Assembly (NCBI GenBank): GCA_040752415.1
Contig: JBFMGU010000005.1
Span: 2,988-66,987, forward strand
DNA length: 64,000 bases
Origin: Myxococcota bacterium
GTDB lineage: Bacteria; Myxococcota; JACRCW01
Direction of reading: 5' to 3'
Shown piece after piece: positions 1 to 17,534 of this stretch. Position numbers and translations under genes: made by a program. Under the pieces are notes generated by a model, which worked only from the letters and a program-made list of their open reading frames with translations, ran no database searches and had not been told where the DNA came from. Within the stretch, counting starts at the first letter, position 1. Every line of letters begins with the position of its first letter.

Positions 1-353
1 TATGGGACGTGGCCCTGACGCTTGTGACACGTGCGCGCCACCTGCAGCAGGTTGCGTCCGTCGAGGAATTCCATCACCAACGCCTCGGCGCCGGGCGTCT
101 GGCTCACCTCCAGCACACGGACGATGTTGGGATGCTTGAGGAGCTGCACCAGCCGCTGCTCCTGCAGGAACATGTCCACGAACATGCGGTCCGCGGACAG
201 GTCCGACCGGAGCCGCTTGATGACGACGAGCTTCCCGTCCGGTCCCGTCGCCCGCGCCAGGTACAGCGTGGCCATGCCGCCCTGGGCCAGTCGGTCCATG
301 ACGGTGTAGCCGGGCAGCGTGAAGTCCGCGGCGGATGGCTGGGAAGTCGTCAT
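1..353 (-). CDS. Hanks-type Ser/Thr protein kinase, N-terminal part (runs off window start; not in the ORF track)
   Basis: Manual translation from ATG at 353: MTTSQPSAADFTLPGYTVMDRLAQGGMATLYLARATGPDGKLVVIKRL...MFLQEQRLVQLLKHPNIVRVLEV...LVMEFLDGRNL, matching kinase subdomains I-V. Confidence 0.9.
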   Translation of the reverse strand, partial: MTTSQPSAADFTLPGYTVMDRLAQGGMATLYLARATGPDGKLVVIKRLRSDLSADRMFVDMFLQEQRLVQLLKHPNIVRVLEVSQTPGAEALVMEFLDGRNLLQVARTCHKRQGHVP

Positions 354-556
354 GGAGACCCGGCCGGGAGCATCCCCAGTGTGACGCGGGCGGTCAAATC
401 CGGGCCCCCGCGGGATTGCCCGGGCCACGTTTCAGCGCCGACGCCGCCCTGCTTCAGGATGTTTCACGCGGCGCACCCCCCGGGTACGTTTGTCGACGAG
501 CGGCACACCGGCGCTCCGGGTGGCATGCGGCTTGTAGCCCGACGGGGGGAGGCATC

Positions 557-1831: not shown

Positions 1832-2670
1832 AGGCCTCGCGTCTGCTGGTGCTCCTCGCGCTCGGCGGGTGCGAGCAATCCCTTCCGCCTCCCGCTCCGA
1901 CGACGGCTGCGCCCCCCACTCCGGCAAAGCCGGCCGACGAGCCTCACGGAATGGGCACGCTGCGTCAGCCCGCGCCGCAACCCGCCCTGCCCCACGCGAC
2001 GTACGCCGTGGCGGGATTCCCGCTCAACACGCCGCCACTTGCGGAAGGGAATGACCGGGAGCTCGTCGAGCAGCACTGTTCCGTGTGTCACGCCACCACG
2101 TACATCACCATGCAGCCGCCGCTGTCCCGCGAGGCGTGGCAGGCCACGGTCAACAAGATGCTCCAGGCCTATGGCGCCCGCATCAGCGACGACGTGGCCA
2201 GCCGAGTGGTGAACTACCTGGCCGCGCACTATGCGCCCGACACCCGCGTGGAAACGCCGCGCAACGTCGGCAGCGACGTGGGGCCGGCGGTGTTCACGCG
2301 TGAATGCCGGATGTGCCACCAGGAGGGAGGGACCGGTTTGGCGGGTGTTTTTCCCCCGCTGAAGGGTCACGCACCGCTGCTGCTTGCCTCACCGGAGCGT
2401 CGGGCGCACCTCATCGACGTGGTGCTGCACGGGCTCAGTGGTGAGATCCAGGTGCAGGGGCAGCGCTACGTGGGTGCCATGCCATCCATGTCGCGCCTCT
2501 CCGACGAGGAGATTGCCGCGGTGCTCAACCACGTCACTCGCGCGTGGGGCAATGATGCGCTGCTTGCCGCGGGTGTGACGCCAATTCGTCCCGACGAGGT
2601 CGGTGCGCGGCGCGGGTCGGGACAGACGGCGGAGCTCAACCATGTGCGACGTGCTTCACTCGGCCTCTGA
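1828..2670 (+). CDS. Dihaem c-type cytochrome lipoprotein (SorB-like domain fused to a c552-like domain)
   Basis: ATGA overlap with upstream gene; lipobox-like LGGC; CSVCH followed by YITMQPPL...WQATVNKM; second CRMCH followed by GVFPPL...GAMPS. Confidence 0.85.
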   Translation: MKASRLLVLLALGGCEQSLPPPAPTTAAPPTPAKPADEPHGMGTLRQPAPQPALPHATYAVAGFPLNTPPLAEGNDRELVEQHCSVCHATTYITMQPPLSREAWQATVNKMLQAYGARISDDVASRVVNYLAAHYAPDTRVETPRNVGSDVGPAVFTRECRMCHQEGGTGLAGVFPPLKGHAPLLLASPERRAHLIDVVLHGLSGEIQVQGQRYVGAMPSMSRLSDEEIAAVLNHVTRAWGNDALLAAGVTPIRPDEVGARRGSGQTAELNHVRRASLGL

Positions 2671-3281: not shown

Positions 3282-4145
3282 TCAACGTAGCGCAGCGCCG
3301 CCCCTGCCCTCCGTCAGCAACGCGTCGACGATGCCGTGGAACACCGCCCTCTCGCCCTCCTGACCCACCGCCGCAATCGGCGTTCCCTCGTCGCATGCCA
3401 CGCGGATGCGCTCGTCCAAGGGGATCTCCCCCAGGAACGGCACGCCGTAATCCTCCGCCAGCATCCGTCCCCCGCCCTCCCCAAAGGGCCGGTACACCAC
3501 TCCCGTGTCCGGCGCGACGAAGCAGCTCATGTTCTCCACCACGCCCTTCACCGGCACGCCCACCTCCAGGAGCATGCGCAGGGCGCGACGCACGTCGTCG
3601 GTGGCCACGGTCTGCGGCGTGGTCAGGACCACTGCGCCGGTGATGGGGAGCTCCTGCGCCATGGTGAGCTGCACGTCGCCCGTGCCCGGCGGCATGTCGA
3701 TGATCAGGTAGTCCAGCGGGCCCCAGGCCACGTCGTCCAGCAGCTGGATGATGGCCGCGGTGGCCACCGACGAACGCCAGATGAGCGGCGTGTCCGACTC
3801 CGGCATGGTCAGCCCCACGCTCATCACCTTCATCCCAAAGTTCTCCGCCGGGACCATCTTTCCGTCGTCATTCCACCGCACGCGCTCGTCCTCCACCTGC
3901 AGCATGCGCGGAACGCTGGGCCCGTACACGTCGGCATCCAGGATGCCCACCACAAACCCGCGCTGCGCCAACGTGCTGGCCACGTTCACCGCCACGGTGC
4001 TCTTGCCCACGCCACCTTTCCCGCTGGTGAACACCAGGACGTTCTTCGCCCACGGAGCGCGGTTGTGCGGAGCACGCGTGTGTCCCCAGGTGATGTCCGG
4101 CTCCTCGCCTTGCTGGCGCGGACGGCCAATCTGGACCAGCGCCAT
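3282..4145 (-). CDS. mrp: Mrp/ApbC/NBP35 family Fe-S cluster carrier ATPase
   Basis: SGKGGVGKST, DADVYGPS, DMPPGTGD, GVVENMS motifs; start overlaps upstream stop (TGATG). Confidence 0.93.
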   Translation of the reverse strand: MALVQIGRPRQQGEEPDITWGHTRAPHNRAPWAKNVLVFTSGKGGVGKSTVAVNVASTLAQRGFVVGILDADVYGPSVPRMLQVEDERVRWNDDGKMVPAENFGMKVMSVGLTMPESDTPLIWRSSVATAAIIQLLDDVAWGPLDYLIIDMPPGTGDVQLTMAQELPITGAVVLTTPQTVATDDVRRALRMLLEVGVPVKGVVENMSCFVAPDTGVVYRPFGEGGGRMLAEDYGVPFLGEIPLDERIRVACDEGTPIAAVGQEGERAVFHGIVDALLTEGRGGAALR

Positions 4146-4549
4146 CACAGACACCCCTTGAAGGCACCCGGCTTCGGCTTGCGCGCCACGGTGTATTCCT
4201 CGACGTCAACCGTGGCCACGCCGGTCTTCTTGTCCAACTTCACCACCTTGCCGGTGAAGTCGATGCTTCCGCCGCCGAACGCCTTCTCCAGCTCAAAGCG
4301 GAACACCTTGCGGGAGGAGATCCGGTAGATCTGCATCTCCGCCACGTCGACAACGACGATCTCCTTCTGCGCCTCCGCCAGCGGACACGCCGTGATGCCA
4401 TCCAGCTTGCCGCTCTCGCGTGCCGCCAGCGCGCAGGAGAGCGCGGTCACCGCACCGGACGTGACCTCCACCTCCTCGCCCTTCTCCACGGCACCCGCTG
4501 GGACAGCCGCCAACAACACCGCCACGGAGAAACCAATGACCCGTCTCAT
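4145..4549 (-). CDS. Small secreted protein with C-terminal KPKPGAFKGCL tail
   Basis: Sec-type signal peptide; two internal Cys plus penultimate Cys; translationally coupled on both sides; GGAGG RBS. Confidence 0.8.
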   Translation of the reverse strand: MRRVIGFSVAVLLAAVPAGAVEKGEEVEVTSGAVTALSCALAARESGKLDGITACPLAEAQKEIVVVDVAEMQIYRISSRKVFRFELEKAFGGGSIDFTGKVVKLDKKTGVATVDVEEYTVARKPKPGAFKGCL

Positions 4550-5730
4550 GGGGCCTCCTCCTGTTCCGTCGACGTCGTGACGCCCAGCGTGCGCAGGTAC
4601 GCCACCATCGCCGCCACGTCCTCCTTGGACATCGTCCCGAACGAGGGCATGCGCGAAACCCGTTTTCCCTGCGCATCCACCGTCGACCAGTCGGATAGAC
4701 CGCTGGTGGGGAAGACCTCCGTCACGCCCGGGGCCTGCGGACGGCGCAGGTGCTGATTGGGATTGGGCGAAGGCACCACCACCTCACTGGGCTGCGTGAT
4801 GGAATCCCGGAGGTAGGACGGGCTGGCAATGCCGCCAATGGTGGTGAGGTCCGGCGCCATGCCCGGAGCCGCCAGCCGCTTCTCACCGACGTGATGGCAC
4901 GCCACGCACACCGACTCCACCAGGATCCTTCCCTTGGCCACGTCGCCCAGGTCGCCTGGCCGGTGGCCCCACGCCACTTCGTTCACATAGCGTTCACTTA
5001 GCGCGCGGTTGGGAACGCGCAGGAACTTCCACGCGGTCAACGACTTGTTGCCACCTCGCTCGCTGTGGTTCCCGTCCCAGACCGCCAGCGCAAACGGAAT
5101 GAGCCCCTGACGCAGGTCACCGCCATGCGCCACGAGCGGACGGACGAAGACGGCGCGCCAGCGGTGCGTGGTGACGTCGTAGCCCAGCGACATCCGCACT
5201 CCGTCCATCGCCGCACGCGTGGAGGACCCGAAGCCGGCCGCCACCGCGGTGCGCACCACTTGGCCCGTCGACGCGGCGCGCTGGTGGTAGAGCACCACCG
5301 GGTTCGCCTCATCCCCCATGCCCACGTACGGCAGGCGGATGCCCTCACCGAAGCGCTGGGGAACCTGCAGCGCCACTGCGTCGCCAAAGACGCTCGTCTC
5401 ATCGGGGCGAATGCGATCCTCCGTGGCGTCCTCCCACTCCACGTGGACACCAATCTCGCTCGACGAGACCGCAGCGCGGACGGACAGCTTCCTCGGCTTC
5501 GCCGTTTGCAGCGCCGCGTTCGCCACCTTGTCGTTGAGATGCAATGAATGTTGGGGATAGGCGAGCACGGTGGCCGGTGGAATGGATCTCCACAGCGCGT
5601 CGTCAACGCGGTCAGGAATGGGGCCCTTCACCTCCTGCACCAGCACCGTCTCCGACGTCATGAATGGATCCCCGGCACTGGCGCTCACCACCGCCTGCAA
5701 GCCCACCATGACGAACAGCAGCGTTCCCAC
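4546..5730 (-). CDS. Type II DMSO reductase family gamma subunit (EbdC/DdhC/SerC-like haem b domain) fused to a cytochrome c domain
   Basis: EWEDATED, DAVALQVP, PYVGMGD (Met), AVWDG...ERGGNKS (Lys) resemble the EB_dh haem-b domain; C-terminal CVACH...MPSF. Confidence 0.85.
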   Translation of the reverse strand: MGTLLFVMVGLQAVVSASAGDPFMTSETVLVQEVKGPIPDRVDDALWRSIPPATVLAYPQHSLHLNDKVANAALQTAKPRKLSVRAAVSSSEIGVHVEWEDATEDRIRPDETSVFGDAVALQVPQRFGEGIRLPYVGMGDEANPVVLYHQRAASTGQVVRTAVAAGFGSSTRAAMDGVRMSLGYDVTTHRWRAVFVRPLVAHGGDLRQGLIPFALAVWDGNHSERGGNKSLTAWKFLRVPNRALSERYVNEVAWGHRPGDLGDVAKGRILVESVCVACHHVGEKRLAAPGMAPDLTTIGGIASPSYLRDSITQPSEVVVPSPNPNQHLRRPQAPGVTEVFPTSGLSDWSTVDAQGKRVSRMPSFGTMSKEDVAAMVAYLRTLGVTTSTEQEEAP

Positions 5731-5733
5731 GAC

Positions 5734-6783
5734 TCACCTCACCGGCGGCGCGGAGACCGCCTTCACGCCACGGCGACCAATCTGCACGAGGCCGTTCTCC
5801 TGCGGCGCGCCAATCCGGAACATCTCGCTGTGCTTGTACGCAATGAGAACGTCCATGAGCTCGGAGCGCTTGCCCTCCTTGCGCTTCTTCATCTCCTTCT
5901 CCAACGTCGCCAGCGCGGGACGCACGCCGCTGCCAAACAGGCTCTCCAGGTAGGAGATGGGAATGCGCTCACTGTTGGGAATGGGCTTGCCGTCCTTGTC
6001 GAACTTGGGCGGGCCCGGGAGTGGGGGCACGTAGAAGACGTTGGGCTGCGTGCCGTACTCGGGATGCAGCGGCAGCGCGACCTTGTACTCATTTACCAGC
6101 TTGTGGACCTGCCCGTCCTTGTCGTCGAGGTAGCCGACGAAGCGGATGCGTCCCACGCACTGCTGAGCGCACGCCGGCGGCAGTCCCTTCTCGACGCGCG
6201 GAAAGCAGAAGATGCACTTCTCCGACTTATAGATCTTCGGGTTGAAATAGACCTTCTTGTACGGACACCCGGCAATGCAATAGCGCAGCCCCTCGCACCG
6301 CTGCTGGTCGACGAGAACCACGCCGTCCTGGTCCCGTTTGAAGATGGCCCCTCGAGGACACGCGGCCAGGCATCCCGGGTTGGAGCAGTGGTTGCAGATG
6401 CGCGGCAGGTAGAAGAGGTGGGAATTCGGGAACTCACCCGCGCCTTCATCTTCGTCCCAGTTGGGCCCCACGCGCGGGGTTCCCTGCGGTTCAATCTCGT
6501 GGCCCAGGGCGGCTTCGTCGAGATTCAGATCCCACGGCGTGCCGTAATCGGCGGAACGGTTGGGCACCACGCCTTCTTGCAGGTTGCCCGCGGCGTCAAA
6601 GCCTCCTCCCATGTCCTCCCACTTGCGCGGATAGCCGGCGCCCGGCTTCGTCTCGACGTTGTTCCAATACATGTATTCGCGGCCATTGCGATTGGTCCAC
6701 TGGGTCTTGCAGGCCACGGTGCACGTCTGGCAGCCAATGCACTTGTTCAGGTCCATCACCATGGCCAGTTGTCGCTTGGACAT
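5734..6783 (-). CDS. Type II DMSO reductase family beta (Fe-S) subunit, NarH/SerB/EbdB-like
   Basis: DLNKCIGCQTCTVAC; WNNVETKPG; CNHCSNPGCLAACP; CEGLRYCIAGCPYKK (3Fe-4S type); CIFCFPR...CAQQCVGRIR; HPEYGTQPNVFYVPP. Confidence 0.95.
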   Translation of the reverse strand: MSKRQLAMVMDLNKCIGCQTCTVACKTQWTNRNGREYMYWNNVETKPGAGYPRKWEDMGGGFDAAGNLQEGVVPNRSADYGTPWDLNLDEAALGHEIEPQGTPRVGPNWDEDEGAGEFPNSHLFYLPRICNHCSNPGCLAACPRGAIFKRDQDGVVLVDQQRCEGLRYCIAGCPYKKVYFNPKIYKSEKCIFCFPRVEKGLPPACAQQCVGRIRFVGYLDDKDGQVHKLVNEYKVALPLHPEYGTQPNVFYVPPLPGPPKFDKDGKPIPNSERIPISYLESLFGSGVRPALATLEKEMKKRKEGKRSELMDVLIAYKHSEMFRIGAPQENGLVQIGRRGVKAVSAPPVR

Positions 6784-6792
6784 GGATCCTCC

Positions 6793-9678
6793 TCAGGCCT
6801 TCGCCAGGTCGACGGTGGCTTCGTAAGCGTGCTGGTTCCCGTCCCAGTTGGTGCCGAACTTCAGGTGACCCCAGCCGTCGCTCACCTCGAGCAGGTTGAG
6901 CATGTCCCCCACGAGCAGGTTGTGACCCTTCTTCCGTCGGTACATGAACGGTTCCCAGCCATGCTCCATGACGACGGCATCGGGAGGCACGCCCGGTGCA
7001 ATCTTCGCCATGAGCACCACGTCGCCCATGTCGTTGAACATGCGGACTTCGTCTCCGTCGGAGATGCCGCGAGCACGGGCCACGTCCGGGTTGATCATCA
7101 CGTACGGGCGACCGCCACGCTGCAGGCGTTGCAGGATGGGTGACGTCTTGTACATGGAGTGGATGGACCAGCGCGCGTGCGGCGTCATGAGCAGGAACGG
7201 GAAGCGCTTGGGACGAATGGGCTCCCGCGCGGTGGGCACATGCGCGCCGGTCTCAATCCATAACGGGTGGTCCACGTAGAAGGTCAGCCGCCCCGTCACC
7301 GTCTCGAAGCGATGGCGCAGGAACAGCTGGCTCTCGAACGTGTTGTACGGCTTGTCCTTGTACAGCGGTGACGTCTTGCCCGCCTTCTCGTTGAGCACCA
7401 GGAAACCGCCGCGCTCCACCACCGTCTTCGGTGTGTTCGGCTTGAACTGGTCCACGTGTTCCAGCGCATACTCCACGGCGTCGCGGTCGGAGCGGATGCG
7501 TCCGTCCAACGTGTATTCCTTCACCAGCTCATCCATCGCGTGGAAGCCGGACTGCGTGTGCGCGGCGTCGGGAATGCGGATGTAACGCTGGTCTCCCGTC
7601 TCGCGGTGCTTGCGGGTGGCAATCTCCTGCAGCTTCTCGACGAGCAGGACCGCGATCTCCCACTCCGACTTCGCCTCACCCACGCGCTTCAAGCCAGCGG
7701 GAGGCACCGCCAGGTTGGCGAAGCGGTGATAGCCGGGATTCGTTCGGATGTCCCACGTCTCATAGTGGGAGGCGCAGGGCAGCAGGATGTCCGCGTAGGT
7801 GGCAAAGTCGCTCATGCGCACGTCGCCATACGCAATGAACCTGGCCTTCTTGAGGAACGCCTCCTTGTAGCTGCCCTTGTTGCGTCGGAAGCGGGAATCC
7901 GCGAACAGGAGGAACGTCTCCACCGTGGTCCAGTACGGCTTGCCCTGCTTCTCACCGGGGTCATTGGCGCTCTTGTCCAGCAGCGCCTGCACCTGCTTGC
8001 GGTACTCCGCCTTCCCCTGCCCGGTGCTGCGACGCACGTCCTCGTCGGCGAAGTGCTTCTCGTAGTCGTTCATGCCTTCGCCCAGCACGAACTCACTGAC
8101 GAAGCCGGAGGCAAAGCGGTGCGTGTAGCGACCGTCGAAGCCGGAGAGTCCCTGCAGCCCGGTGATGTTCCACTCGTTCTCGGTGTTGAGGCCGCCATTC
8201 GGACCCAGCTTGCCGGTGAACGCGGCCAGCGCCGCAATGGCACGCTGGGAGAGCATCCCATTGAAGTGCTTACCCACCGCGAAGCCCATGGTGATGACGC
8301 CATTCTTCGCCGTGGCCAGGTCGTGCGCCAGCTCGTCGACAATCCGGGGATGCACACCGGTGAGCCTGGCGGTCTTCTCCGCGCTGAAGCGACGCAGCTC
8401 CTCTTTCATGACGGAGAACGCCGTGGTGACCTCCACCTCCTTGCCGTCCTTCAGCCTGAGCTTCCAGCGTCCATCCAGCGCGGGGTTCACCTTCCAGGAG
8501 ATGTCCTCCAGCCGCAGCGTGTCGACGGTACTTCCCTCACAACCGGGAAGGGGCGTGAACTTCTTTGTCCTCGTGTTGAACGCCAGGAAGACCTCATGGT
8601 CCTTGGCGCCCTCCCCCGCGAAGATGGCGCGGAGGGCCTTGTCAAAGCGCGGGTCCCCCTCGTCGACATCGTGGAGGCGGACCAGCTCCCGGGTGTCCAG
8701 TCGCACCAGAAGCGGGAGATCGGTCAGCTCCTTGAGGTGGCGTTCCTGGTAGAGCTTCTTCTCGATCATCCGCTGCAGGATGGCCAGCGCGAGGTGACCG
8801 TCGTAGCCGGGCTTGAGCGGGACCCAGAGGTCGGCGTGGATGGCGGTGGAATTGAACTCCGGAGTGATCACCACCACCTTGGAGCCGTTGTACTTGCCCT
8901 CCCAGATGTAGTGCGCGTCGGGGATGCGCGACGTGTTGGGGTTGCAGCCCCAGAAGATGGAGAGGTTGGTGGTGTAGAGGAAGTCGTAGGTGCAGCCGAT
9001 GTTCCCTTCGCCGTAGACCACCGACGCGCCGGGAAACATGTCTCCCACGTAGCTGGCAATGTACGGACGCACGGCCCCTAACAGCGTGCCCAGCCGCTTG
9101 ATTGACGCAGCGCGCGCCTCGGTGAGCAGACCCGCGCCGACGTGGATGTAGTTTCCCTCCGGGCCCTTCTCCAGCATGGTCTTGTAGAGCTGGTTCGCCA
9201 CCTCGGTGAGGGCTTCATCCCAGGAGATGCGCTTCCACTTTCCCTCCCCGCGCTCCCCCATGCGCTTCATGGGGTACAGCAGGCGGTCCGCCTCATACAT
9301 GACCTGCGAGTGCTGCACGCCCTTGTTGCAGCCGCGCGGGTTGGCGTCGGGAATGTCCGGAGCAATCTGCGGATAGGAAGCGGACTGGTTCTCCCGCGTG
9401 ACCCGCCCGTCCTGGACCCAGACTTCCCACGCGCAATTCCCCTGGCAATTCACGCAGTGGTACGCAAAACCGTGGGCCTCACCGTCGCCATACGTGCCGG
9501 CAAACTCCTGGCGATAGAGATCTTCGGTGGACTTCGTGTCCGGATAGGCGGTGCGCGGGTCGTCCACGCGGACCGGGTGGGGAAGCGGCTGTTCCTGCTG
9601 GGCCACCGCGCGACTCGCGGCGCCCGCCGCCCCCACTGCCAACAGGTTCTTCAGGACGTCACGACGGGAAAATGGCAT
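6793..9678 (-). CDS. Type II DMSO reductase family Mo-bisPGD catalytic alpha subunit, Tat-exported (Ser/Clr/Ddh/Ebd-like; substrate unknown)
   Basis: SRRDVLK Tat signal; FS0 motif HCVNCQGNC...NPRGCNKG; likely Asp Mo ligand in SYVGDMFPG; WGCNP; TPHARWSIHS. Confidence 0.93.
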   Translation of the reverse strand: MPFSRRDVLKNLLAVGAAGAASRAVAQQEQPLPHPVRVDDPRTAYPDTKSTEDLYRQEFAGTYGDGEAHGFAYHCVNCQGNCAWEVWVQDGRVTRENQSASYPQIAPDIPDANPRGCNKGVQHSQVMYEADRLLYPMKRMGERGEGKWKRISWDEALTEVANQLYKTMLEKGPEGNYIHVGAGLLTEARAASIKRLGTLLGAVRPYIASYVGDMFPGASVVYGEGNIGCTYDFLYTTNLSIFWGCNPNTSRIPDAHYIWEGKYNGSKVVVITPEFNSTAIHADLWVPLKPGYDGHLALAILQRMIEKKLYQERHLKELTDLPLLVRLDTRELVRLHDVDEGDPRFDKALRAIFAGEGAKDHEVFLAFNTRTKKFTPLPGCEGSTVDTLRLEDISWKVNPALDGRWKLRLKDGKEVEVTTAFSVMKEELRRFSAEKTARLTGVHPRIVDELAHDLATAKNGVITMGFAVGKHFNGMLSQRAIAALAAFTGKLGPNGGLNTENEWNITGLQGLSGFDGRYTHRFASGFVSEFVLGEGMNDYEKHFADEDVRRSTGQGKAEYRKQVQALLDKSANDPGEKQGKPYWTTVETFLLFADSRFRRNKGSYKEAFLKKARFIAYGDVRMSDFATYADILLPCASHYETWDIRTNPGYHRFANLAVPPAGLKRVGEAKSEWEIAVLLVEKLQEIATRKHRETGDQRYIRIPDAAHTQSGFHAMDELVKEYTLDGRIRSDRDAVEYALEHVDQFKPNTPKTVVERGGFLVLNEKAGKTSPLYKDKPYNTFESQLFLRHRFETVTGRLTFYVDHPLWIETGAHVPTAREPIRPKRFPFLLMTPHARWSIHSMYKTSPILQRLQRGGRPYVMINPDVARARGISDGDEVRMFNDMGDVVLMAKIAPGVPPDAVVMEHGWEPFMYRRKKGHNLLVGDMLNLLEVSDGWGHLKFGTNWDGNQHAYEATVDLAKA

Positions 9679-9694
9679 GGCAGCTCACGGGGGC

Positions 9695-10156
9695 TCAGAG
9701 ACAACCGCCTCCCGCGCCAGGCTTGGGCGGGGAGTACTCACCGGAATCCTCGGGCAGGCCTGCTTCACTCCATGCCTTCATCCCGCCGGCGAGGTTGCGG
9801 GCATTGACGAAGTAGCCCAGGCATTTCCCGTGTTCCGCCCGGCTCCCCTCGTCGGAGACCACCACGGTGGGAACCGACGGCAGGATGCGTTCCTGGATGA
9901 CCTCGGGAACCGCCTTGGCGTCACAACCGGGGAACGGGATGGCCCCGGGAATGTGCGTGCCCTCGTAGTTCTCCGACGGATCCGGGCGCACATCCACCAC
10001 CTGCACCTGGGCGCGGGCCAGCGTTTGATAGAGCTCCTTCGGCGTCAGCGGCAGCTGCTGCTCCAGCCTCGCCTGACGTCGACCTTCCGCGACGTTCAAG
10101 AAGCCCAGCACCAGGATCAGGACCGCGTAGCCCACGGGTTCCAGGACGCGCTTCAT
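9695..10156 (-). CDS. Membrane-anchored rhodanese-fold protein with C-terminal PPKPGAGGGCL tail
   Basis: N-terminal TM helix; VVDVRP, THIPGAI, LAGGMKAW rhodanese signatures; active-loop position reads VVVSDEG (no Cys). Confidence 0.85.
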   Translation of the reverse strand: MKRVLEPVGYAVLILVLGFLNVAEGRRQARLEQQLPLTPKELYQTLARAQVQVVDVRPDPSENYEGTHIPGAIPFPGCDAKAVPEVIQERILPSVPTVVVSDEGSRAEHGKCLGYFVNARNLAGGMKAWSEAGLPEDSGEYSPPKPGAGGGCL

Positions 10157-10284
10157 GGCGTTGCTCCTTGCCCGCTGGTGGCCACCTTCTGCTCCAGCTC
10201 GGCGTTGTGACGACGCAGTCCAAGCCAACCCACCAGCAGCCCGACGATGACACCGACGAAAAGCACGCGAACGGATTTCTTCAT
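10153..10284 (-). CDS. 43-aa single-TM membrane peptide
   Basis: MKKSVRVLFVGVIVGLLVGWLGLRRHNAELEQKVATSGQGATP; fills the operon gap; ATGA overlap with the downstream gene. Confidence 0.6.
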   Translation of the reverse strand: MKKSVRVLFVGVIVGLLVGWLGLRRHNAELEQKVATSGQGATP

Positions 10285-10294
10285 CGCTTCGCCC

Positions 10295-11422
10295 TCAGTC
10301 GTAGACGCGGTCGCCGCGGAGCTGCGCCTGGGTGAGATCCAGGGAGCGCAGGACCAGGAGGCGTGCGTTGGACGTCGCCATGGACGCCGCAAAGAAAGTT
10401 CCCGCCATGGCCAGGCTACCCAGCGACAACGTGGGCCACGCGGAGATGAACGCACCGGTGGTGCATCCGCCGCCAATCATGGCTCCCAGGCACATCACGG
10501 TGGTGGCGGAGAACGTGGTGATGATGGCCTTCACGTCGAGCACGCGCTCCACCGGCTGGGCCACCGCGGCCCGGGACGGGATGGAGAACATCCGCGCGAG
10601 ATAGCCGCCAGGAAGCAGTCCCACGAAGAGCGCGGCGCGCCACAGGATGTCGTCGTTGATACGAGGCACCAGCTCCAGCGGATGGCCCACCAGGTGGAAC
10701 ACCCAACCCACGAATGCCAGCACACCGCCGGAGAACCCCAGGTAGCCGCCCTGCCACGTGGCCATGACGACGAGGATTCCCGCCACGGTTCCCGCCGCGC
10801 CCCAGCTCCACTCGCCACGGATGTAGTCCATCACCGTGGTGCGCTCGCGCGCGGGTTCATACGAGGCTTCCGGTGTGAGCCGGTCCACCACCAGCGCAAT
10901 CACCATGAACAGCCCACCCCACGCCAGGGCCAGCGCGCCATAGGGGAGTCCCAACACGCCGTGCAGCGTCAGCGGCTTCTGGTTGACGGCGATGATGCCC
11001 GCGTTGGTGAGCGGATCCTTTAGCGCCGCATAGAGCAGCACCCCGACAAACAATCCCACCGTGGCAGCGGTGGCAACCCACTTCTTCTCCCCGCCCCGAC
11101 CGCCCGCCTTGGCAACACAGGTCCCGGGGCACAATCCGGAGACGCCCATGGCCGCACCAAACAGCACACCGCCGAGGACGTGGGCGTAACCCAGGAACGG
11201 CATGACGCGGGGCACCAGGCCAAGGCCCTCGGAAACACCCAGCGCGGCAGCCAATCCGTAGAGCAAGGAGGCCACGCCAATCGCGGTGAATGCGAACTTC
11301 ATGACCTTCGTGTCGCGTAGGGTGAGCATCCCCATGACGCGCGAGTACCGGGTAGCGCCCACCTTGTAGAGGACGACCCCAAACGCCATCCCCGTCATGG
11401 CCCCTTTGACGAAAGCAAGCAT
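10295..11422 (-). CDS. YeeE/YedE family sulfur-compound (thiosulfate-type) transporter, two fused halves
   Basis: Multiple TM helices; GGVLFGAAMGVSGLCPGTC and GAMIGGGCTTG motifs. Confidence 0.9.
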   Translation of the reverse strand: MLAFVKGAMTGMAFGVVLYKVGATRYSRVMGMLTLRDTKVMKFAFTAIGVASLLYGLAAALGVSEGLGLVPRVMPFLGYAHVLGGVLFGAAMGVSGLCPGTCVAKAGGRGGEKKWVATAATVGLFVGVLLYAALKDPLTNAGIIAVNQKPLTLHGVLGLPYGALALAWGGLFMVIALVVDRLTPEASYEPARERTTVMDYIRGEWSWGAAGTVAGILVVMATWQGGYLGFSGGVLAFVGWVFHLVGHPLELVPRINDDILWRAALFVGLLPGGYLARMFSIPSRAAVAQPVERVLDVKAIITTFSATTVMCLGAMIGGGCTTGAFISAWPTLSLGSLAMAGTFFAASMATSNARLLVLRSLDLTQAQLRGDRVYD

Positions 11423-11440
11423 GCCGTCCTCCCTGGGTTC

Positions 11441-12388
11441 TCACTGCTGCGGCGTGCCCAGCGGCAGCGACTCCGTGTTGCCCCACTCATTCCACGAGCC
11501 CACGTACAGCTTGGTGTTCGCGTGACCGGCCTTGCGCAGCGCCAGGTACTGGAAGGATCCGCGGCCCAGTCCCACGTGGCAGTAGCTGATGACCGTCTTG
11601 CTCGGGTCGTAGCCATTCTTCTTGAGCTTCTCGAGCTGCTTCTTGAGATCGTCGGCGTCGCGCAGCGTCGGCTTGTCCGCATCACCGCCCTTGTTGCCGG
11701 CGTACTTGCTCCACGGGGAGAACACCGCGGTGGGGATGAATCCGCCGCGAGCCACCGTGACCTCCTTGCCGGGAGACTTCATGCCCGCCTGCAGCGTCTT
11801 GCCGGTGTACTCATCCAGGTTGTGACGCGCGTCGACGATGAGATAGTGCGCACCGTCGCCCGTGGCCTTCTTCACCTCGTCAACCGAGGCGATCATGTCC
11901 CACTGGACACTCGGTGTGAACGTCTTGGCCGCCGGCTTCTTGGCCGCGCCGGTCTCCAGCGCGCCACCATGCGCCTTCCACGTGGCCAGGCCTCCGTCGA
12001 GGATCTTCACGTTCTTGTGACCGTAGAGCGCCAGCAGGAACCAGTTGCCGCTCGCGTTGACGCCGGCGCCCCCGTCGTAGACCACCACCTGCGTGTTGGC
12101 GTCGATCCCCAACTCGCCGCCAATCAGCTTGGCCGCGTTGGGCTCACACAGCGGGAGCCCCTTGCACGCGCGCACGTCGTCCAGCAGCGGAATGTCATGC
12201 GCATACGCCACCACGGAGCCGGGAATATGGCCCTTCTCGAACTCCTTTTCAGCGTCGGAAAAGACGAAGCGGACCTCCGGCTTGCCGGCCAGTGCCTTGG
12301 CTTCCTCCACGCTGATGAACAGCTCGTCCGCGCGCGCGGATGGCGCCACCAGGAGTCCCACGACGGTCAGGAACAACGCCTTTTTCAT
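11441..12388 (-). CDS. Periplasmic tandem-domain rhodanese/sulfurtransferase
   Basis: Sec signal (…PSARA); GHIPGS; LDGGLATW; catalytic YCHVGLGRGS; LYVGSWNEW. Confidence 0.9.
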   Translation of the reverse strand: MKKALFLTVVGLLVAPSARADELFISVEEAKALAGKPEVRFVFSDAEKEFEKGHIPGSVVAYAHDIPLLDDVRACKGLPLCEPNAAKLIGGELGIDANTQVVVYDGGAGVNASGNWFLLALYGHKNVKILDGGLATWKAHGGALETGAAKKPAAKTFTPSVQWDMIASVDEVKKATGDGAHYLIVDARHNLDEYTGKTLQAGMKSPGKEVTVARGGFIPTAVFSPWSKYAGNKGGDADKPTLRDADDLKKQLEKLKKNGYDPSKTVISYCHVGLGRGSFQYLALRKAGHANTKLYVGSWNEWGNTESLPLGTPQQ

Positions 12389-13092
12389 TTCGCCTTTCTC
12401 CTTCTTGAAACAGAGGTCGCGGACACACCCGGACGAGGTGCCTTGCGCCCCCGCGGGCGGTACGCCGCCACGTCGGGAAAACCGAGATCAAGGTGCCGCG
12501 CCTGGAAGCCCACGGAAGCCAGGAGATTCACGGCCTCCAGGGCCATGGGGCAGTAGGGACCGCGGCAATAGGCCACCACTTCGCGTCCTTTAGGGATCTC
12601 CGCCAGACGACGACGCAACTCATTGAGCGGGATGCACAGCGCGCCCGGCAGGTGCCCGGATTGGAACTCCTCCGACGGACGGACATCCAGCAGCGTCACC
12701 TCGTCCGCCTCAATCCGCGCCAGGAGCTCTTCGCGCTCGTCGTCCGCCAGCGTCTTCAGCGCGCCGCGCAGCCGGTCCATCTCCGGCAGCCGGACCTCCG
12801 CCAGGCCGCGCAGCGCCGCAAAGAACGCCGACACGGACTCATCCGCCAACCGATAGATCACGCGCTGGCCTTCCTTGTGTGACTCCACCAGGCGCGCCGC
12901 GCGGAGCTGCTGCAGGTGCTGGGAGGTGTTGGTGAGCGCAACGCCCGCCGCTTCCGCCAGGGTTTCCACGCTGCGTGGCCCCTGACGCAGGAGGTCCAGG
13001 AGACGCAGACGGATGGGATTGGCGAGCGCACGGCCGATGCGCGCGAGGTTGCTGTAGTGGGCGAGCGCCAGGGCGCGAAGGTCATTGTCCAT
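12385..13092 (-). CDS. ArsR/SmtB family regulator fused to a rhodanese domain
   Basis: LANPIRLRLLDLL...SQHLQQLRAARLV HTH; LDVRPSEEFQSGHLPGA; YCRGPYC. Confidence 0.93.
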   Translation of the reverse strand: MDNDLRALALAHYSNLARIGRALANPIRLRLLDLLRQGPRSVETLAEAAGVALTNTSQHLQQLRAARLVESHKEGQRVIYRLADESVSAFFAALRGLAEVRLPEMDRLRGALKTLADDEREELLARIEADEVTLLDVRPSEEFQSGHLPGALCIPLNELRRRLAEIPKGREVVAYCRGPYCPMALEAVNLLASVGFQARHLDLGFPDVAAYRPRGRKAPRPGVSATSVSRRRKAK

Positions 13093-13105
13093 TTGCGAAT
13101 TCTCT

Positions 13106-13127
13106 TATTCCATGATTCTATGGAATA
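13106..13127. promoter_or_regulatory. Palindromic operator, probable site for the ArsR-rhodanese regulator
   Basis: Perfect 8-6-8 palindrome TATTCCAT-GATTCT-ATGGAATA in the AT-rich divergent intergenic gap. Confidence 0.7.
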
Positions 13128-13176
13128 CGTCAAGAACGTTCCCGCGCGGTCCCGTCCGCGTGGGCAGGAGGCCTCC

Positions 13177-13578
13177 ATGACCCGTCATTTCCAGCAGCTC
13201 AGCGCTGCTCTGCTTCTCTCCGCGGCCGCGGCCATCTCCCTGGCTGCTGACGTCGCCAAGCCCCCCAAGCCCACGAAGGAGCTGCTGGACAAGGGGAAGG
13301 CCGTCTACACGGTCAACTGCGTGCTCTGTCACGGCGAGAAAGGCGACGGGAACGGTCCCGCGGGCGTTGCGCTCAACCCCAAGCCCAGGGACTTCAACAA
13401 GGATCCCTTCAAGCAGGGCACGCAGCCGGCGGACGTGTTCAAGACCGTCACCGCGGGCGTCGCGGGGACCACCATGGTGGGCTGGCCGCAGCTCTCCGAG
13501 GAGGACCGCTGGGCGGTGACGTATTACGTGCTGGAGATGTTGCCCAAGGACAAGAAGAAGGCGCCCGCCAAGCGCTGA
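13177..13578 (+). CDS. Periplasmic monohaem cytochrome c
   Basis: Signal peptide; CVLCHGEKGDGNGP...PKPRDF...GTTMVGW; GGAGG RBS. Confidence 0.9.
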   Translation: MTRHFQQLSAALLLSAAAAISLAADVAKPPKPTKELLDKGKAVYTVNCVLCHGEKGDGNGPAGVALNPKPRDFNKDPFKQGTQPADVFKTVTAGVAGTTMVGWPQLSEEDRWAVTYYVLEMLPKDKKKAPAKR

Positions 13579-14574
13579 TCAACGTTGCCCACTCGCTGGC
13601 GGAGAAAGCTGCTCCAGCGCGCGACGGACCTCGGTGACCAGGACGTCCCGTCGCCACTCCGCGTCTCCCGGCACGTTGGGCAGCGGGTGACATTGACGTC
13701 GCGCCACTTCCGCCACGTCCCTCCTCACCGCATCATCCCAGCTGCTCCCCGCGTACTGCTCCAGTCCCTTGAGCACCCTGGGCTGTGCCGCCAGCGCGGA
13801 GACCACCACGCAAAGGCTCACCACGCGCCCGTCGGGATCCAGGCGAAGCGCGGCCGCCACCGCCAGCAGTGGAAAATCAATGGCACTCCGAGATGCCAGC
13901 TTCCGGTACGAGCTCCACGCGGGCTGGGCGCAGTCCGGAACACGCACCTCGGTGACGATCTCGTCGTCGCGTTTGGCCACGTGTCTCGCCCCGTCCGCCA
14001 CGTAAAGCTCCGCCAACGGCAACGCGCGAACGCCGCGTGACGACGTCAGGACGACCTGCGCTCCCAGCGCCATCAGTGCCGGAGGCGTGTCCGCCGTGAA
14101 CGCCGCGACGCATCGCCTGCCGCCGGGAACCACGTGGCAGACGTCGCCGTCCTTCCGCAGGCAATGCCCCAGCGCCGCCCTCCAGAACGCGGACTGGTTG
14201 TAATAGACGCACCGTGTGGGCAGACAGAGATTGCCTCCCAGCGTTGCCGCATTGCGAATTTGCGGGCTCGCCACGACGGAAGCGGCCTGGGCAACCGCCG
14301 GCGCATGGCGCGTCACCACGGGCTCCTCGGCCAGGCGGGAGAGGGTGACGCCCGCGCCGATCACCAACGTGCCGTCGTCCTGGATGCGGATGTGTCGGAG
14401 TGCGTCAATCCGTGAAAGGCTCACCAGGACCGACGGCGACGCCAGGTCGTTCTTCAACGCGGGGAGGAGATCCGTTCCGCCGGCCACAAGCTGTGCGCCT
14501 GGCGTGCCTAGAGCCCTCAAGGCCTCATCCACCGTGCTCGGTCGCACGACGTCAAACGCGGGCAGCGGCAGCAT
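13579..14574 (-). CDS. hcrB: 4-hydroxybenzoyl-CoA reductase beta subunit (FAD, extra 4Fe-4S)
   Basis: AGGTDLLP, IRNAATLGGN, Cys insert CVYYNQS...CLRKDGDVC...C; GGAGG RBS; operon context. Confidence 0.85.
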   Translation of the reverse strand: MLPLPAFDVVRPSTVDEALRALGTPGAQLVAGGTDLLPALKNDLASPSVLVSLSRIDALRHIRIQDDGTLVIGAGVTLSRLAEEPVVTRHAPAVAQAASVVASPQIRNAATLGGNLCLPTRCVYYNQSAFWRAALGHCLRKDGDVCHVVPGGRRCVAAFTADTPPALMALGAQVVLTSSRGVRALPLAELYVADGARHVAKRDDEIVTEVRVPDCAQPAWSSYRKLASRSAIDFPLLAVAAALRLDPDGRVVSLCVVVSALAAQPRVLKGLEQYAGSSWDDAVRRDVAEVARRQCHPLPNVPGDAEWRRDVLVTEVRRALEQLSPPASGQR

Positions 14575-16864
14575 CCAGCACCTCCTTTGCATGCAAGAGC
14601 CTCAACACCTGTGAAGGCGAGAAGGGAACGGCGTTCACCCGGATTCCCACGGCGTCATGGATGGCGTTGGCAATCGCCGGAATGGACGAATGCAGCGGGC
14701 CCTCCCCTGCTTCCTTCGCACCGTACGGCCCCACGGGATCGTTCGTCTCGACGAGAATCGGGTGGATGCGCGGCACGTCGCCCGTCGTGGGAATGCGGTA
14801 GTCCAGCAGCGTGGGTCCGCGATGCAATCCCGACGGGTGGAACGTGTGCTCTTCAAACAGCGCCTCCCCCAGTCCCATCACGGCGCATCCCTCAATCTGC
14901 CCCTCGACGAGCAGCGGATTCAGCGCGGTTCCCCCGTCGTGGGCGGCCCAGATGTTCTCCACGCGCACGCGTCCCGTTTCCGGGTCCACCGTCACCTCGG
15001 CCACGTGCGCCGTGAACGAGTACGCCGGCGACGCACCAATGGTTCCGCCCCGGTACGACCCGTGCACATCCTTGGGCGTGTTGAAGTGGCCCACGCTTCC
15101 CAGCGTTCCTCCGTCGGTCTCTGCCCACTGGAATGCGTCGTGGATGGCCACCTTCTGGGCGGTGTCGCTCTGGCGCATGGCCCAACCGTCGGCCAGCAGC
15201 ACGTCGACGGACTGACAGTTCCATCGTCGTGCAACCGCGTCGCGGACCTTGTCACCGAGCTGACGCGCAGCCATCAGGCACGCATTTCCGGCCATCAACG
15301 TGATGCGGCTGGAGTACGCGCCCAGGTCCACCGGCGTCAGGTCCGTGTCGGCTGCCAACACGCGGACTGACGTCGGCAGTACCCCCAGCTCCTCGCACGC
15401 AATCTGCGCGAGCATGGACATGGCGCCCTGGCCGATGTCGCTGACGCCGCTGAAGATCGTCACGCGCCCGCTCCGATCCACTTTCATCTGCACCGCGCTC
15501 TGCGGCATGTCATTCGGATAGATGGGGTAGTTGGTTCCACTGATGTAGAAGCTCCCCGCCACACCCACCCCGCGACCGAATGGCAGCTTGCGGAACTTCT
15601 CCTTCCATCCGCTCGCCTTCTCCACCCGCTCCAGGCATTCCGCGAATCCGTTGGAACGCACCAGCAATCCATTGACGGTGCGATTTCCCCCTTCCAACAG
15701 GTTCCGCCGTCGGAGCTCCATGGGGTCCAGGCCCAGCTTCTCCGCCAGCTGATCCACCGCTACCTCGAATGCGAACCGCGGCTGCACGCTTCCGTGACCA
15801 CGCTTGGGACCGCACGCCGGCTTGTTGGTGTACACACGACGAGCGTCAAAGCGATACGCCGGCAGGTGCAGCGGAGCCGCCAGGAGCTGACCGGAGTAGT
15901 ACGTCGTCACCAGGCCGAATGACGCATACCCGCCACCGTCGATGTCGATCTTCGCGTCACACCCGGTAAGCCGCCCGTCTTTCATGGCTCCCACGCGGTG
16001 ACGCATGCGCATCCCGTGACGACCGCGGTGCGCGTAGAACACCTCCTCACGCGTGTACCGGATCTTCACCGGCCTTCCCGTCATCATCGCCAGCTTGGCA
16101 ACGCAGAATTCCAGGTCGAACGGCTCGCTCTTGCCACCAAACCCGCCGCCCACGTTGGGCTGGATGACCCGCACGCGGTCCATGGGCAGCTCGAGAACGC
16201 GCGCCAGCTCCCGGTGCAGGTAGTGGGGAACCTGCGTGGCGCTGATGACCGTGAGCACGCCGTGGGGCTCCACCTGTCCAATCGCGCAGTGCGGCTCCAT
16301 GGCCACGTGCGTGGTGCTCTCGAACGTCGATTCCAGGTCGACAATCACGTCGCTGGCGGCCAGCGCGGCTTCCACGTCGCCGAATGCAAGCTCCACGTGC
16401 TTCAGCACATTGCCGTGCTTGTTGCCCTCGTGGATGACGGGCGCTCCAGGCGCCAACGCTTGTTCCACCGTCGTCACGGCCGGCAGCGGCTCGTAATGCA
16501 CCGCCACCGCGTTCGCGGCCCGAGCCGCGGTTTCCTCATCCAACGCCGCAACCGCCGCCACCGCGTCGCCAATGTAGCGCGCCTTGTCGACGCACAACAC
16601 GTGCTCGTCCTGCGTCCACGGAATGATTCCGTATGGATGCGGCAGATCCTTTCCGGTGATGACCGCCAGCACACCGGGAATCCGCATCGCCGCGCTCGCG
16701 TCCACGCCGAGAATGCGTGCATGGGCATGCGGGCTGCGCACGATTCGACCATGCAGCATCCGTGGAAGCCGGATGTCGTCGGTGAACCGCGCCTGTCCGG
16801 TCACGCACGCCGCCGCGTCTCCCTTGGGAGTCCGGCGCCCCACCATCCAGCGACGCTCACCCAT
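14552..16864 (-). CDS. hcrA: 4-hydroxybenzoyl-CoA reductase alpha subunit (xanthine oxidase family Mo protein)
   Basis: VGGGFGGK, GPKRGHG, GAYSSR, GAKEAGEG motifs; adjacent to bcr cluster. Confidence 0.85.
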   Translation of the reverse strand: MGERRWMVGRRTPKGDAAACVTGQARFTDDIRLPRMLHGRIVRSPHAHARILGVDASAAMRIPGVLAVITGKDLPHPYGIIPWTQDEHVLCVDKARYIGDAVAAVAALDEETAARAANAVAVHYEPLPAVTTVEQALAPGAPVIHEGNKHGNVLKHVELAFGDVEAALAASDVIVDLESTFESTTHVAMEPHCAIGQVEPHGVLTVISATQVPHYLHRELARVLELPMDRVRVIQPNVGGGFGGKSEPFDLEFCVAKLAMMTGRPVKIRYTREEVFYAHRGRHGMRMRHRVGAMKDGRLTGCDAKIDIDGGGYASFGLVTTYYSGQLLAAPLHLPAYRFDARRVYTNKPACGPKRGHGSVQPRFAFEVAVDQLAEKLGLDPMELRRRNLLEGGNRTVNGLLVRSNGFAECLERVEKASGWKEKFRKLPFGRGVGVAGSFYISGTNYPIYPNDMPQSAVQMKVDRSGRVTIFSGVSDIGQGAMSMLAQIACEELGVLPTSVRVLAADTDLTPVDLGAYSSRITLMAGNACLMAARQLGDKVRDAVARRWNCQSVDVLLADGWAMRQSDTAQKVAIHDAFQWAETDGGTLGSVGHFNTPKDVHGSYRGGTIGASPAYSFTAHVAEVTVDPETGRVRVENIWAAHDGGTALNPLLVEGQIEGCAVMGLGEALFEEHTFHPSGLHRGPTLLDYRIPTTGDVPRIHPILVETNDPVGPYGAKEAGEGPLHSSIPAIANAIHDAVGIRVNAVPFSPSQVLRLLHAKEVLDAAAARV

Positions 16865-17351: not shown

Positions 17352-17534
17352 CTGCTTTCGCGCATCCTTTTCGTTCACCGCTTTATCTGCGCATTTTGCT
17401 GTCATTGCATCCACCCTCTGCCGCAAGAACTACGCGATCTGACGCGGAGTTGTCGACGAGAACTCGTTGACGCTGAACGATCGTTCGTGTACCAGACCGC
17501 GCATTCACGCTGCAAATGGGGAAGGGACAAATAC

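Follow-up and report, generated by a model that had tools for sequence, protein, structure and literature searches.

The molybdenum enzymes of the type II (Nar-type) branch in the family of dimethyl sulfoxide reductases (DMSOR) are known only to act on small and free substrates, namely nitrate, chlorate, perchlorate, selenate, dimethylsulfide and hydrocarbons. Among them DdhABC of Rhodovulum sulfidophilum is a periplasmic enzyme made of an alpha subunit exported by twin-arginine translocation (Tat), an iron-sulfur (Fe-S) beta subunit and a gamma subunit of the EB_dh haem-b type; it oxygenates a sulfur atom and passes the electrons to cytochrome c. A haem b with Met/Lys ligation forms the high-potential path in Ddh, Ser and Ebd alike. 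ClrABDC and SerABDC have the same architecture, SerA being close to ClrA, and the clr operon, which lacks sulfur-relay genes, has the order clrA-B-D-C and cld as a neighbour. Here, I describe a gene cluster encoding an enzyme of this kind in the company of rhodaneses, a YeeE/YedE-family transporter and two proteins ending in Gly-Cys-Leu. It lies in a stretch of 64,000 nucleotides (hereafter the window, on contig C445) from a Myxococcota bacterium whose genome assembly comprises 11 Mb in 520 contigs, with a completeness of 96.8%. Unlike Ddh, which uses a free thioether without carrier protein, rhodanese or YeeE and whose gamma subunit has no cytochrome c fusion, the enzyme described here has such a fusion and all of these neighbours; unlike Clr, its cluster lacks a delta chaperone. 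The reading I favour, with a probability of roughly 0.45, is that of a periplasmic dehydrogenase oxidising sulfane sulfur bound to the tail cysteine of a carrier protein, the electrons leaving through haem b and the fused cytochrome c.

The cluster consists of ten co-oriented genes on the minus strand (3282–13092) and one divergent gene:

12385–13092, minus strand: ArsR/SmtB-type regulator fused to a rhodanese domain (NF033788, 82.6 bits, cut-off 55; PF00581)
11441–12388, minus strand: tandem rhodanese of the periplasm, equipped with a Sec signal peptide and, around the catalytic Cys270, the loop YCHVGLGRGS
10295–11422, minus strand: YeeE/YedE-family membrane sulfur transporter (PF04143, 84.9 bits, cut-off 27, residues 31–348)
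10153–10284, minus strand: 43-aa peptide with a single transmembrane (TM) helix, its stop overlapping the start of the next gene (ATGA)
9695–10156, minus strand: rhodanese-fold protein with an N-terminal membrane anchor, ending PPKPGAGGGCL (the GGGCL protein; PF00581)
6793–9678, minus strand: alpha, type II (Nar-type) catalytic subunit with molybdenum-bis(pyranopterin guanine dinucleotide) (Mo-bisPGD), Tat motif SRRDVLK
5734–6783, minus strand: beta, four-cluster Fe-S subunit (TIGR03478, 532.1 bits, cut-off 480.7)
4546–5730, minus strand: gamma, EB_dh haem-b domain plus mono-haem CxxCH cytochrome c domain (PF09459, 51.1 bits, cut-off 33.3)
4145–4549, minus strand: secGCL, secreted 134-aa protein ending PKPGAFKGCL (no Pfam or NCBIfam match)
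3282–4154, minus strand: Mrp/ApbC-type Fe-S cluster carrier ATPase (PF10609, 306 bits)
13177–13578, plus strand: candidate electron partner, a small cytochrome c that has one haem and a signal peptide

Gene assignments were checked by open reading frames (ORFs), Pfam and NCBIfam, which bore out the domains, the order, the short or overlapping junctions and the divergent cytochrome c as listed in an earlier note on this DNA. Calculated from the coordinates, successive junctions measure -4, 18, 10, -4, 16, 9, 3, -4 and -10 nt, with start and stop codons overlapping at several of them; given the ATGA overlap with the stop of the small peptide, the GGGCL gene likely starts at ATG 10156 and not at TTG 10228. 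The cluster is single-copy in the host genome, and the database names of alpha, secGCL and the GGGCL protein are all generic.

As judged from its sequence, the alpha-beta-gamma complex belongs among the type II enzymes of the DMSO reductase family but forms a divergent branch of them. The best model for alpha, TIGR03479, matches over the full length at 790.6 bits, below its cut-off of 984.75, and gamma matches TIGR03477 at 101.7 bits, likewise below the cut-off (169.85). PcrAB and ethylbenzene dehydrogenase provide the best solved relatives (PcrA, 4YDD, 393 bits; EbdA, 2IVF, 330 bits; NarG, 176 bits). The FS0 motif His-x3-Cys-x3-Cys...Cys (H74, C78, C82 and C117 in alpha) is invariant in 31 alpha sequences and aligns with that of PcrA; so does D213, invariant in the same 31, with the Asp that stands at chain position 170 of PcrA and acts as its molybdenum ligand. 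In gamma, M138 and K229 are invariant and common to ClrC and the haloarchaeal gamma subunit; they are presumably the haem-b ligands, as in EbdC. The fusion of gamma to a CxxCH cytochrome c occurs in all three phyla in which the cluster was found (see below), for instance in an Aquificota (L049) and a Campylobacterota (L088) locus.

On a common phmmer scale, members of the clade to which alpha belongs score 1084–1703 bits, a group named dimethylsulfide dehydrogenase 633–663, the chlorate-reductase group 525–559, a haloarchaeal periplasmic NarG 403 and the NarG of Escherichia coli 176; PcrA and EbdA score below the Clr and Ddh groups. The dimethylsulfide-dehydrogenase-named group includes a 910-aa protein of R. 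sulfidophilum (P0216), which, from its organism and length, I infer to be DdhA itself, and alpha, over 96% of its length, has 34.5% identity to the ClrA of Alicycliphilus denitrificans BC. A maximum likelihood tree was computed from 46 rows (LG+G4, quick search), without SerA, EbdA and PcrA and with ClrA, haloarchaeal NarG, E. coli NarG (plasmid records) and Ddh/Clr-like proteins as named references. Its 32 target rows form one clade (Shimodaira-Hasegawa-like approximate likelihood ratio support of 100, stem 0.73) within which each phylum is monophyletic. The branching order among this clade, the Clr group and the Ddh group is an unresolved trifurcation, and the clade is nested in neither of the two groups; Ddh is the highest-scoring named group for alpha and yet a separate clade. 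The earlier note had made its idea of a novel system depend on alpha not falling inside a characterised clade, and within the bounds of this tree alpha stays outside those of Clr and Ddh.

The cluster is far from being confined to its host. One genome per species was scanned for relatives of alpha, which yielded 306 stretches; the best 80 of these were used for the locus counts, made by tblastn with the ten proteins of the window as queries, and fall into 39 Myxococcota-type loci (a few under other labels), 21 of Aquificota (Hydrogenothermaceae) and 20 of Campylobacterota. Their alpha subunits are 58–73%, 62–64% and 51–53% identical to that of the window, respectively. Sulfurihydrogenibium, Persephonella and Hydrogenothermus are the Aquificota concerned, and Sulfurovum, Sulfurospirillum arcachonense, Hydrogenimonas and others the Campylobacterota, with the non-pathogenic Sulfurihydrogenibium yellowstonense SS-5 and S. 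arcachonense DSM 9755 among the organisms in culture. Within the host's own phylum, the secGCL profile finds one copy each in 40 of 401 genomes sampled across it (35 of the 316 high-quality ones).

In both Myxococcota-type and Aquificota loci the tandem rhodanese is followed by YeeE, the GGGCL protein, alpha, beta, gamma and a protein ending in KGCL, which in the window is secGCL. An adjacent tandem rhodanese is found in 36/39 Myxococcota-type, 17/21 Aquificota and 14/20 Campylobacterota loci. By tblastn the KGCL protein is present in 36/39 and 17/21 loci of the first two groups, the misses being explained by contigs that end before that position (10 such loci). The Campylobacterota order is tandem rhodanese, alpha, beta, gamma, and a motif scan finds an ORF of 130–180 aa ending SFFKGCL right after gamma in 19 of the 20 loci, the twentieth stopping inside beta. 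When all 80 loci are taken together, an ORF ending KGCL directly follows gamma in every one of the 70 that can be evaluated (gamma present and at least 700 nt downstream), over three phyla.

The remaining genes are distributed less evenly. YeeE is found in 38/39 Myxococcota-type, 20/21 Aquificota and none of the 20 Campylobacterota loci, and the GGGCL protein in 39/39, 20/21 and none, respectively. A TM peptide of 38–60 aa sits between the two genes in 55 of 58 loci, for which reason the 43-aa ORF of the window is regarded as a real gene. Homologues of the ArsR-rhodanese occur in 16/39 Myxococcota-type loci and in no Aquificota or Campylobacterota locus; Mrp is a neighbour of the cluster in 21/39 loci of Myxococcota type and 11/20 of Campylobacterota, with none found in those of Aquificota; homologues of the divergent cytochrome c are found in 17/39 Myxococcota-type loci, mostly downstream of Mrp. 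The cluster is therefore modular, its core consisting of the tandem rhodanese, alpha-beta-gamma and the KGCL protein, while YeeE, the TM peptide and the GGGCL protein are an accessory module, present or absent as a set, in two of the three phyla. The synteny search proposed in the earlier note thus finds, in favour of its idea, the sulfur-relay genes kept beside alpha homologues in three phyla; the full set of ten genes is not universal. YeeE also occurs in tandem copies in Hydrogenothermaceae, three in locus L055 (5870–9288) and two in L062 (7003–9264). Downstream of the cluster of S. arcachonense (L088, 12053–15511) there are genes for a major facilitator superfamily transporter, a Cache-domain histidine kinase and a response regulator; the latter two may serve as regulators in Campylobacterota, whose loci yielded no ArsR-rhodanese.

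The cluster encodes a pair of cysteine-tailed proteins. Only two of the 861 ORFs of the window (stop-to-stop, at least 40 aa) end in GCL, and these are secGCL and the GGGCL protein, which speaks against a chance arrangement. The tail reads ...PKxKxGxFKGCL in all 53 Myxococcota-type and Aquificota secGCL sequences, and C39, C55, G100, K131, C133 and L134 are invariant in 24 sequences. The GGGCL tail, which follows EYxPP, is identical in all 61 orthologues compared, with C78, C112, G149–G151, C152 and L153 invariant in 20 sequences; the catalytic rhodanese Cys is missing from this protein, its place being taken by Ser in 16 sequences, with Asp, Ala, Glu, Lys, Thr or Gln as the next residue. In the AlphaFold models, secGCL (predicted local distance difference test, pLDDT, 85.9) is a barrel resembling the oligonucleotide/oligosaccharide-binding (OB) fold, from which a 12-residue arm (123–134) devoid of secondary structure extends, and the GGGCL protein (pLDDT 89) has an N-terminal helix (5–34) and a tail, residues 148–153, with values below 50. 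The signal peptides place secGCL in the periplasm by prediction; in some homologues they are lipobox-like when read by eye. The secGCL family is a small one, a search of 1.84 billion proteins giving 32 representatives at E<=1e-3. Its fold has no Foldseek match in the PDB at E<=0.001 (best E 0.078, TM-score ~0.4, to OB-fold proteins), and in the ESM Atlas it falls only in clusters named 'hypothetical protein'. The 43-aa TM peptide (10153–10284) resembles, by eye only, the anchor of the GGGCL protein (10081–10156), both having a short charged start, a TM helix and a conserved charged stretch, which suggests a duplicated anchor or a paired helix.

A precedent for such tails is offered by DsrC. 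In the available portions of PMC3397948, the flexible C-terminus of DsrC is described as its active region, with a strictly conserved penultimate Cys which is the only residue to take up persulfide or sulfonate, and DsrC itself as the substrate-binding protein of DsrAB. The proteins described here share with DsrC/TusE a disordered C-terminal arm in which the penultimate Cys comes after a Pro-Lys-Pro-x-Gly stretch; the host's only match to PF04358 (DsrC/TusE) ends AGIPKPGGCL, an arm that the tails PPKPGAGGGCL and PKPGAFKGCL of the cluster resemble. They differ in that DsrC is a cytoplasmic protein of the PF04358 fold whose partner is a sirohaem enzyme, whereas secGCL is secreted and OB-like. 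Neither secGCL nor the GGGCL protein matches PF04358 in Pfam, the latter matching rhodanese only. Since the likeness between secGCL and DsrC is confined to the arm, it is probably convergent. As for the PF04358 match, it lies in a 339-aa ORF (L094 in G000:C90, 769–1788), in which a long N-terminal extension precedes it and it forms the C-terminal domain, and the 155-aa ORF that follows (L094, 1822–2289) looks DsrE-like by eye.

Whether secGCL may bind to the enzyme was addressed by complex prediction with alpha (residues 66–961) and secGCL (31–134), both given as alignments, in three runs and three controls. The ipSAE interface score is 0.78 (runs 0.79, 0.73 and 0.78), the best control reaching 0.00; in the calibration, out of 80 solved complexes 58 reached the mark applied to this score, as did 2 out of 110 mismatched pairs. 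At least 67% of contacts are shared between the runs, and the partner has a pLDDT of at least 79. The interface comprises residues 385–394, 493, 504, 506, 764–774, 782–789 and 943 of alpha, and residues 53–61 and 80–92 of secGCL together with 127, 128 and 131 of its tail. The gate of the PcrA tunnel is formed by F164, Y165 and W461 (PMC6650914, available portions). These residues align with I207, A208 and W503 of alpha, W503 being Phe in two Campylobacterota sequences aligned. With the replacement of two of the three aromatic gate residues of PcrA, F164 and Y165, by I207 and A208, alpha is predicted to have a wider tunnel mouth; because 493, 504 and 506 flank W503, the equivalent of PcrA W461, the model would place the carrier just there. 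What the docking model offers is a plausible binding site, not catalysis.

The sulfurtransferase that accompanies the enzyme appears to be an active one. C270, C75 and C81 of the tandem rhodanese are invariant in seven sequences from three phyla, and the protein is accordingly proposed, on these residues, as a catalytically competent loader of sulfane sulfur. It scores 103 bits with a 3-mercaptopyruvate sulfurtransferase model and 53.3 bits with ExtH, a rhodanese of selenite/tellurite operons (cut-off 200). YeeE scores 31.8 bits with the TsuA equivalog, whose cut-off is 400. Of the two YeeE-like proteins of Hyphomicrobium denitrificans, SoxT1B is assigned to signal transduction and SoxT1A to sulfur import in the available portions of PMC11582611. 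The SoxT1B/SoxR pair resembles the present case in that a YeeE-family transporter is encoded with an ArsR-type regulator and sulfur-oxidation genes; the small TM peptide and the membrane-anchored Cys-tail protein are peculiar to the latter, as is a regulator with its own rhodanese domain. By analogy, the module of YeeE, peptide and GGGCL protein probably imports sulfur, either for sensing by the ArsR-rhodanese or for cytoplasmic use. The ArsR-rhodanese itself, with its active-site Cys (YCRGPYC), is probably a sulfane-sulfur sensor and repressor.

Two genes convergent with the end of the operon point to sulfite:

335–1831, plus strand: SorA-like sulfite dehydrogenase of the sulfite-oxidase family (PF00174, PF03404; NF052245, 438.7 bits, cut-off 600)
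1828–2670, plus strand: SorB-like c-type cytochrome with an N-terminus that is lipobox-like by eye (NF052246, 75.9 bits, cut-off 93)

Of the 39 Myxococcota-type loci, 10 have a SorA-like gene in their flanks; in L013, L027, L028, L041, L042 and L066 it is co-directional and comes right after secGCL or Mrp. In the host genome, neither SoxY (no match to TIGR04488, SoxY_true_GGCGG) nor SoxB above cut-off was found. SoxB exceeds its cut-off in two of five other genomes with the cluster, both of Aquificota, and in none of the remaining three, namely S. arcachonense, a Sulfurovum metagenome-assembled genome (MAG) and a Myxococcaceae MAG; the cluster is therefore independent of Sox. That it might be an accessory of the Sox system was considered and is ruled out on the same grounds. 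The proposed logic is nonetheless that of SoxYZ/SoxCD, i.e. Cys-bound sulfur on the flexible arm of a periplasmic carrier and a cytochrome c-linked molybdoenzyme, with the difference that SoxCD is of the sulfite-oxidase family and not a bisPGD enzyme, and that SoxY ends in GGCGG; secGCL and the GGGCL protein have no SoxY match, and their tails end in GCL.

In the sequence of events that I favour, the tandem rhodanese would draw on thiosulfate or polysulfide for sulfane sulfur, with sulfite set free where thiosulfate is the source, and hand this sulfur as a persulfide to Cys133 of secGCL. The latter would dock over the tunnel of alpha and thread its arm as far as the molybdenum, in the manner of DsrC with DsrAB, and the bound sulfur would be oxygenated in two-electron oxo-transfer steps. 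Electrons would leave FS0–FS4 for haem b and the fused cytochrome c, from which a soluble cytochrome c would take them to an oxidase. The oxidised sulfur would leave as sulfite, whose oxidation to sulfate would be completed, where present, by the SorA-like sulfite dehydrogenase. YeeE, the small peptide and the GGGCL protein would make up a separate import or relay module, which in Myxococcota-type genomes probably feeds the ArsR-rhodanese. The oxidative direction is favoured by the high-potential exit through haem b and cytochrome c, by the Ddh-like nearest neighbours and by the link to SorA. The earlier note, which is partly supported here, had offered a protein-bound sulfur or selenium species as a possible substrate; the invariant Cys tails, the arm of DsrC/TusE type and the predicted docking at the tunnel speak for one that is protein-bound.

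Several points weigh against this reading. All the evidence is computational, and the characterised type II enzymes are all known to act on a small free substrate. Many named relatives of alpha (Clr, Pcr) are oxyanion reductases, and S. arcachonense, in which the cluster occurs, is a sulfur reducer. The complex model contains no cofactors, and Cys133 is not among its confident contacts; charge counts flanking the TM helix of the GGGCL protein are indecisive as to its topology. The cluster includes no SoxB-like hydrolase or other product-releasing enzyme, and the SorA link amounts to 11 of 40 Myxococcota-type clusters, the window included, and none of the 41 Aquificota or Campylobacterota loci. 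Lastly, a Psr/Ttr-like, quinone-linked molybdenum enzyme inside Aquificota clusters could stand for reductive sulfur chemistry.

One alternative has the enzyme act on a small sulfur compound in free form (sulfite, thiosulfate, polysulfide or a thioether such as dimethylsulfide), with secGCL being not a substrate carrier but a structural or regulatory fourth subunit, a plug of the tunnel or a scavenger of a reactive product. This alternative is unlikely, albeit one to be taken seriously: it would keep the enzyme in line with the free substrates generally known for the type, its nearest named group is Ddh-like, and the docking shows possible binding only, which is also expected of a subunit and does not include Cys133 as a confident contact. 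It leaves unexplained, however, why an invariant penultimate Cys should sit on a disordered arm in two unrelated folds, why that arm should resemble the one of DsrC/TusE, and why an active periplasmic sulfurtransferase should be its constant company.

The earlier note had also considered the reduction of chalcogen oxyanions. As a respiratory oxyanion reductase similar to Ser or Clr, the enzyme would act on selenate or a related compound, and the rhodaneses, Cys tails and YeeE would capture and import its product, e.g. selenite. Chlorate reductase (34.5% identity) and perchlorate reductase (393 bits) are among the named relatives of alpha, the tandem rhodanese has its weak match to ExtH (53.3 bits, cut-off 200), some Sulfurihydrogenibium species are able to respire selenate, and YeeE/YedE and rhodaneses reportedly come up in work on selenium metabolism (PMC9312934, PMC13188914). 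Yet alpha falls outside the Clr group and keeps just one of the three gate residues of PcrA, and the tandem rhodanese scores lower with ExtH than with the 3-mercaptopyruvate sulfurtransferase model; nor was a chlorite dismutase or comparable product-handling gene found by Pfam in 13 flanking genes (window 335–2670 and 13579–18599, L049 and L088). Moreover, the recurrence of the SorA-like gene beside the cluster, the fused high-potential cytochrome c path and the range of hosts (by record titles, lineages of sulfur springs, vents and caves) favour sulfur oxidation over oxyanion reduction, so that the oxyanion options come out as the less supported part of the earlier proposal and this explanation as quite improbable.

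Slightly less probable still is a reductive use of the carrier, in which the enzyme, with electrons from cytochrome c, would reduce a carrier-bound persulfide, an S-sulfonate or sulfur derived from tetrathionate. A case in point concerns the Aquificota, whose loci have a Psr/Ttr-like enzyme in B-C-A order, with an NrfD anchor, between secGCL and a chaperone gene; in L049 (15749–22299) the insert encodes a TtrB-like Fe-S protein, the NrfD anchor and a 1071-aa Tat molybdoprotein that matched no equivalog model. Gene sets of the same size as this insert were seen in 13–15 of the 21 Aquificota and in 3–5 Myxococcota-type loci. S. arcachonense, as noted above, reduces sulfur, and rhodanese-assisted sulfur reductases are known: Sud and Psr of Wolinella cooperate in this way, and a study by Aussignargues et al. 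in 2012 reportedly concerns another such reductase. The haem b (Met/Lys) and the fused cytochrome c are, on the other hand, of high potential and ill-suited to low-potential sulfur reductions; the characterised sulfur, polysulfide and thiosulfate reductases belong to another DMSOR branch with a Cys ligand, and the SorA association points to sulfite made for oxidation. That the genes are mere neighbours without a shared function, for which only the general caution speaks that adjacency alone is not function, is hardly credible and was ruled out, the order being kept over three phyla at alpha identities down to 51%, with secGCL after gamma in 70 of 70 evaluable loci and overlapping start and stop codons at several junctions.

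A few further features of the locus and the genome may be mentioned. There is no TorD/NarJ chaperone gene in the cluster of the window, and Mrp may stand in for the TorD-type chaperone that it lacks; a TorD/NarJ-type chaperone is present in L049 and L088, followed in both by a polyferredoxin of 350–360 aa. The sole PF02613 match of the host genome is on contig C137, beside a second Nar/Nxr-like enzyme (G000:C137, ~4690–10680) whose alpha frame of 1180 aa is 25–31% identical, and whose beta 44% identical, to those of the window. Beyond the divergent cytochrome c (window 13579–17426, minus strand) lies a trio of the xanthine-dehydrogenase/CO-dehydrogenase family, comprising a flavin adenine dinucleotide subunit, an 805-aa molybdopterin subunit and a 2Fe-2S subunit, with no link to the cluster seen. 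The G+C content of the window is high (0.63–0.69); among the 1-kb bins of its first 20 kb, those at 6001–9000, covering alpha and beta, have 0.63–0.64 and the others 0.65–0.69. The lower values over alpha and beta may be a trace of lateral acquisition, which would fit the patchy distribution of the cluster.

The literature search, in which subscription journals and supplements lay outside the scope, found no description of the cluster, and the available portions of PMC3665934, PMC6918859, PMC13609358, PMC13047784, PMC10100899 and PMC3578206 do not mention it. I regard the enzyme as a new and widespread branch of the type II molybdoenzymes, one that has a Cys-arm carrier of its own. More tentatively, and with doubt prevailing, it may represent a further dissimilatory route of sulfur oxidation, independent of Sox, Dsr and sHdr, in which a bisPGD enzyme of the nitrate-reductase type performs a SoxCD-like multi-step oxygenation of sulfane sulfur on the penultimate Cys of secGCL, the periplasmic rhodanese being the loader of this carrier.

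To sum up, if this is true, the enzyme would be the first of the type II molybdoenzymes whose substrate is bound to a protein, hence a new mode of action for the family, and the DsrC-type arm would have arisen, outside the cytoplasm, on folds that are unrelated. With a SorA-type sulfite dehydrogenase as its partner, the cluster would allow the complete oxidation of thiosulfate or sulfur to sulfate in Myxococcota, Hydrogenothermaceae and Campylobacterota. A pathway would thereby be added to the sulfur cycle in dominant sulfur oxidisers of hot springs and vents, such as Sulfurihydrogenibium, Persephonella and Sulfurovum, and the same pathway would exist in about a tenth of the sampled genomes (40/401) of the Myxococcota, a phylum not regarded as one of sulfur oxidisers.

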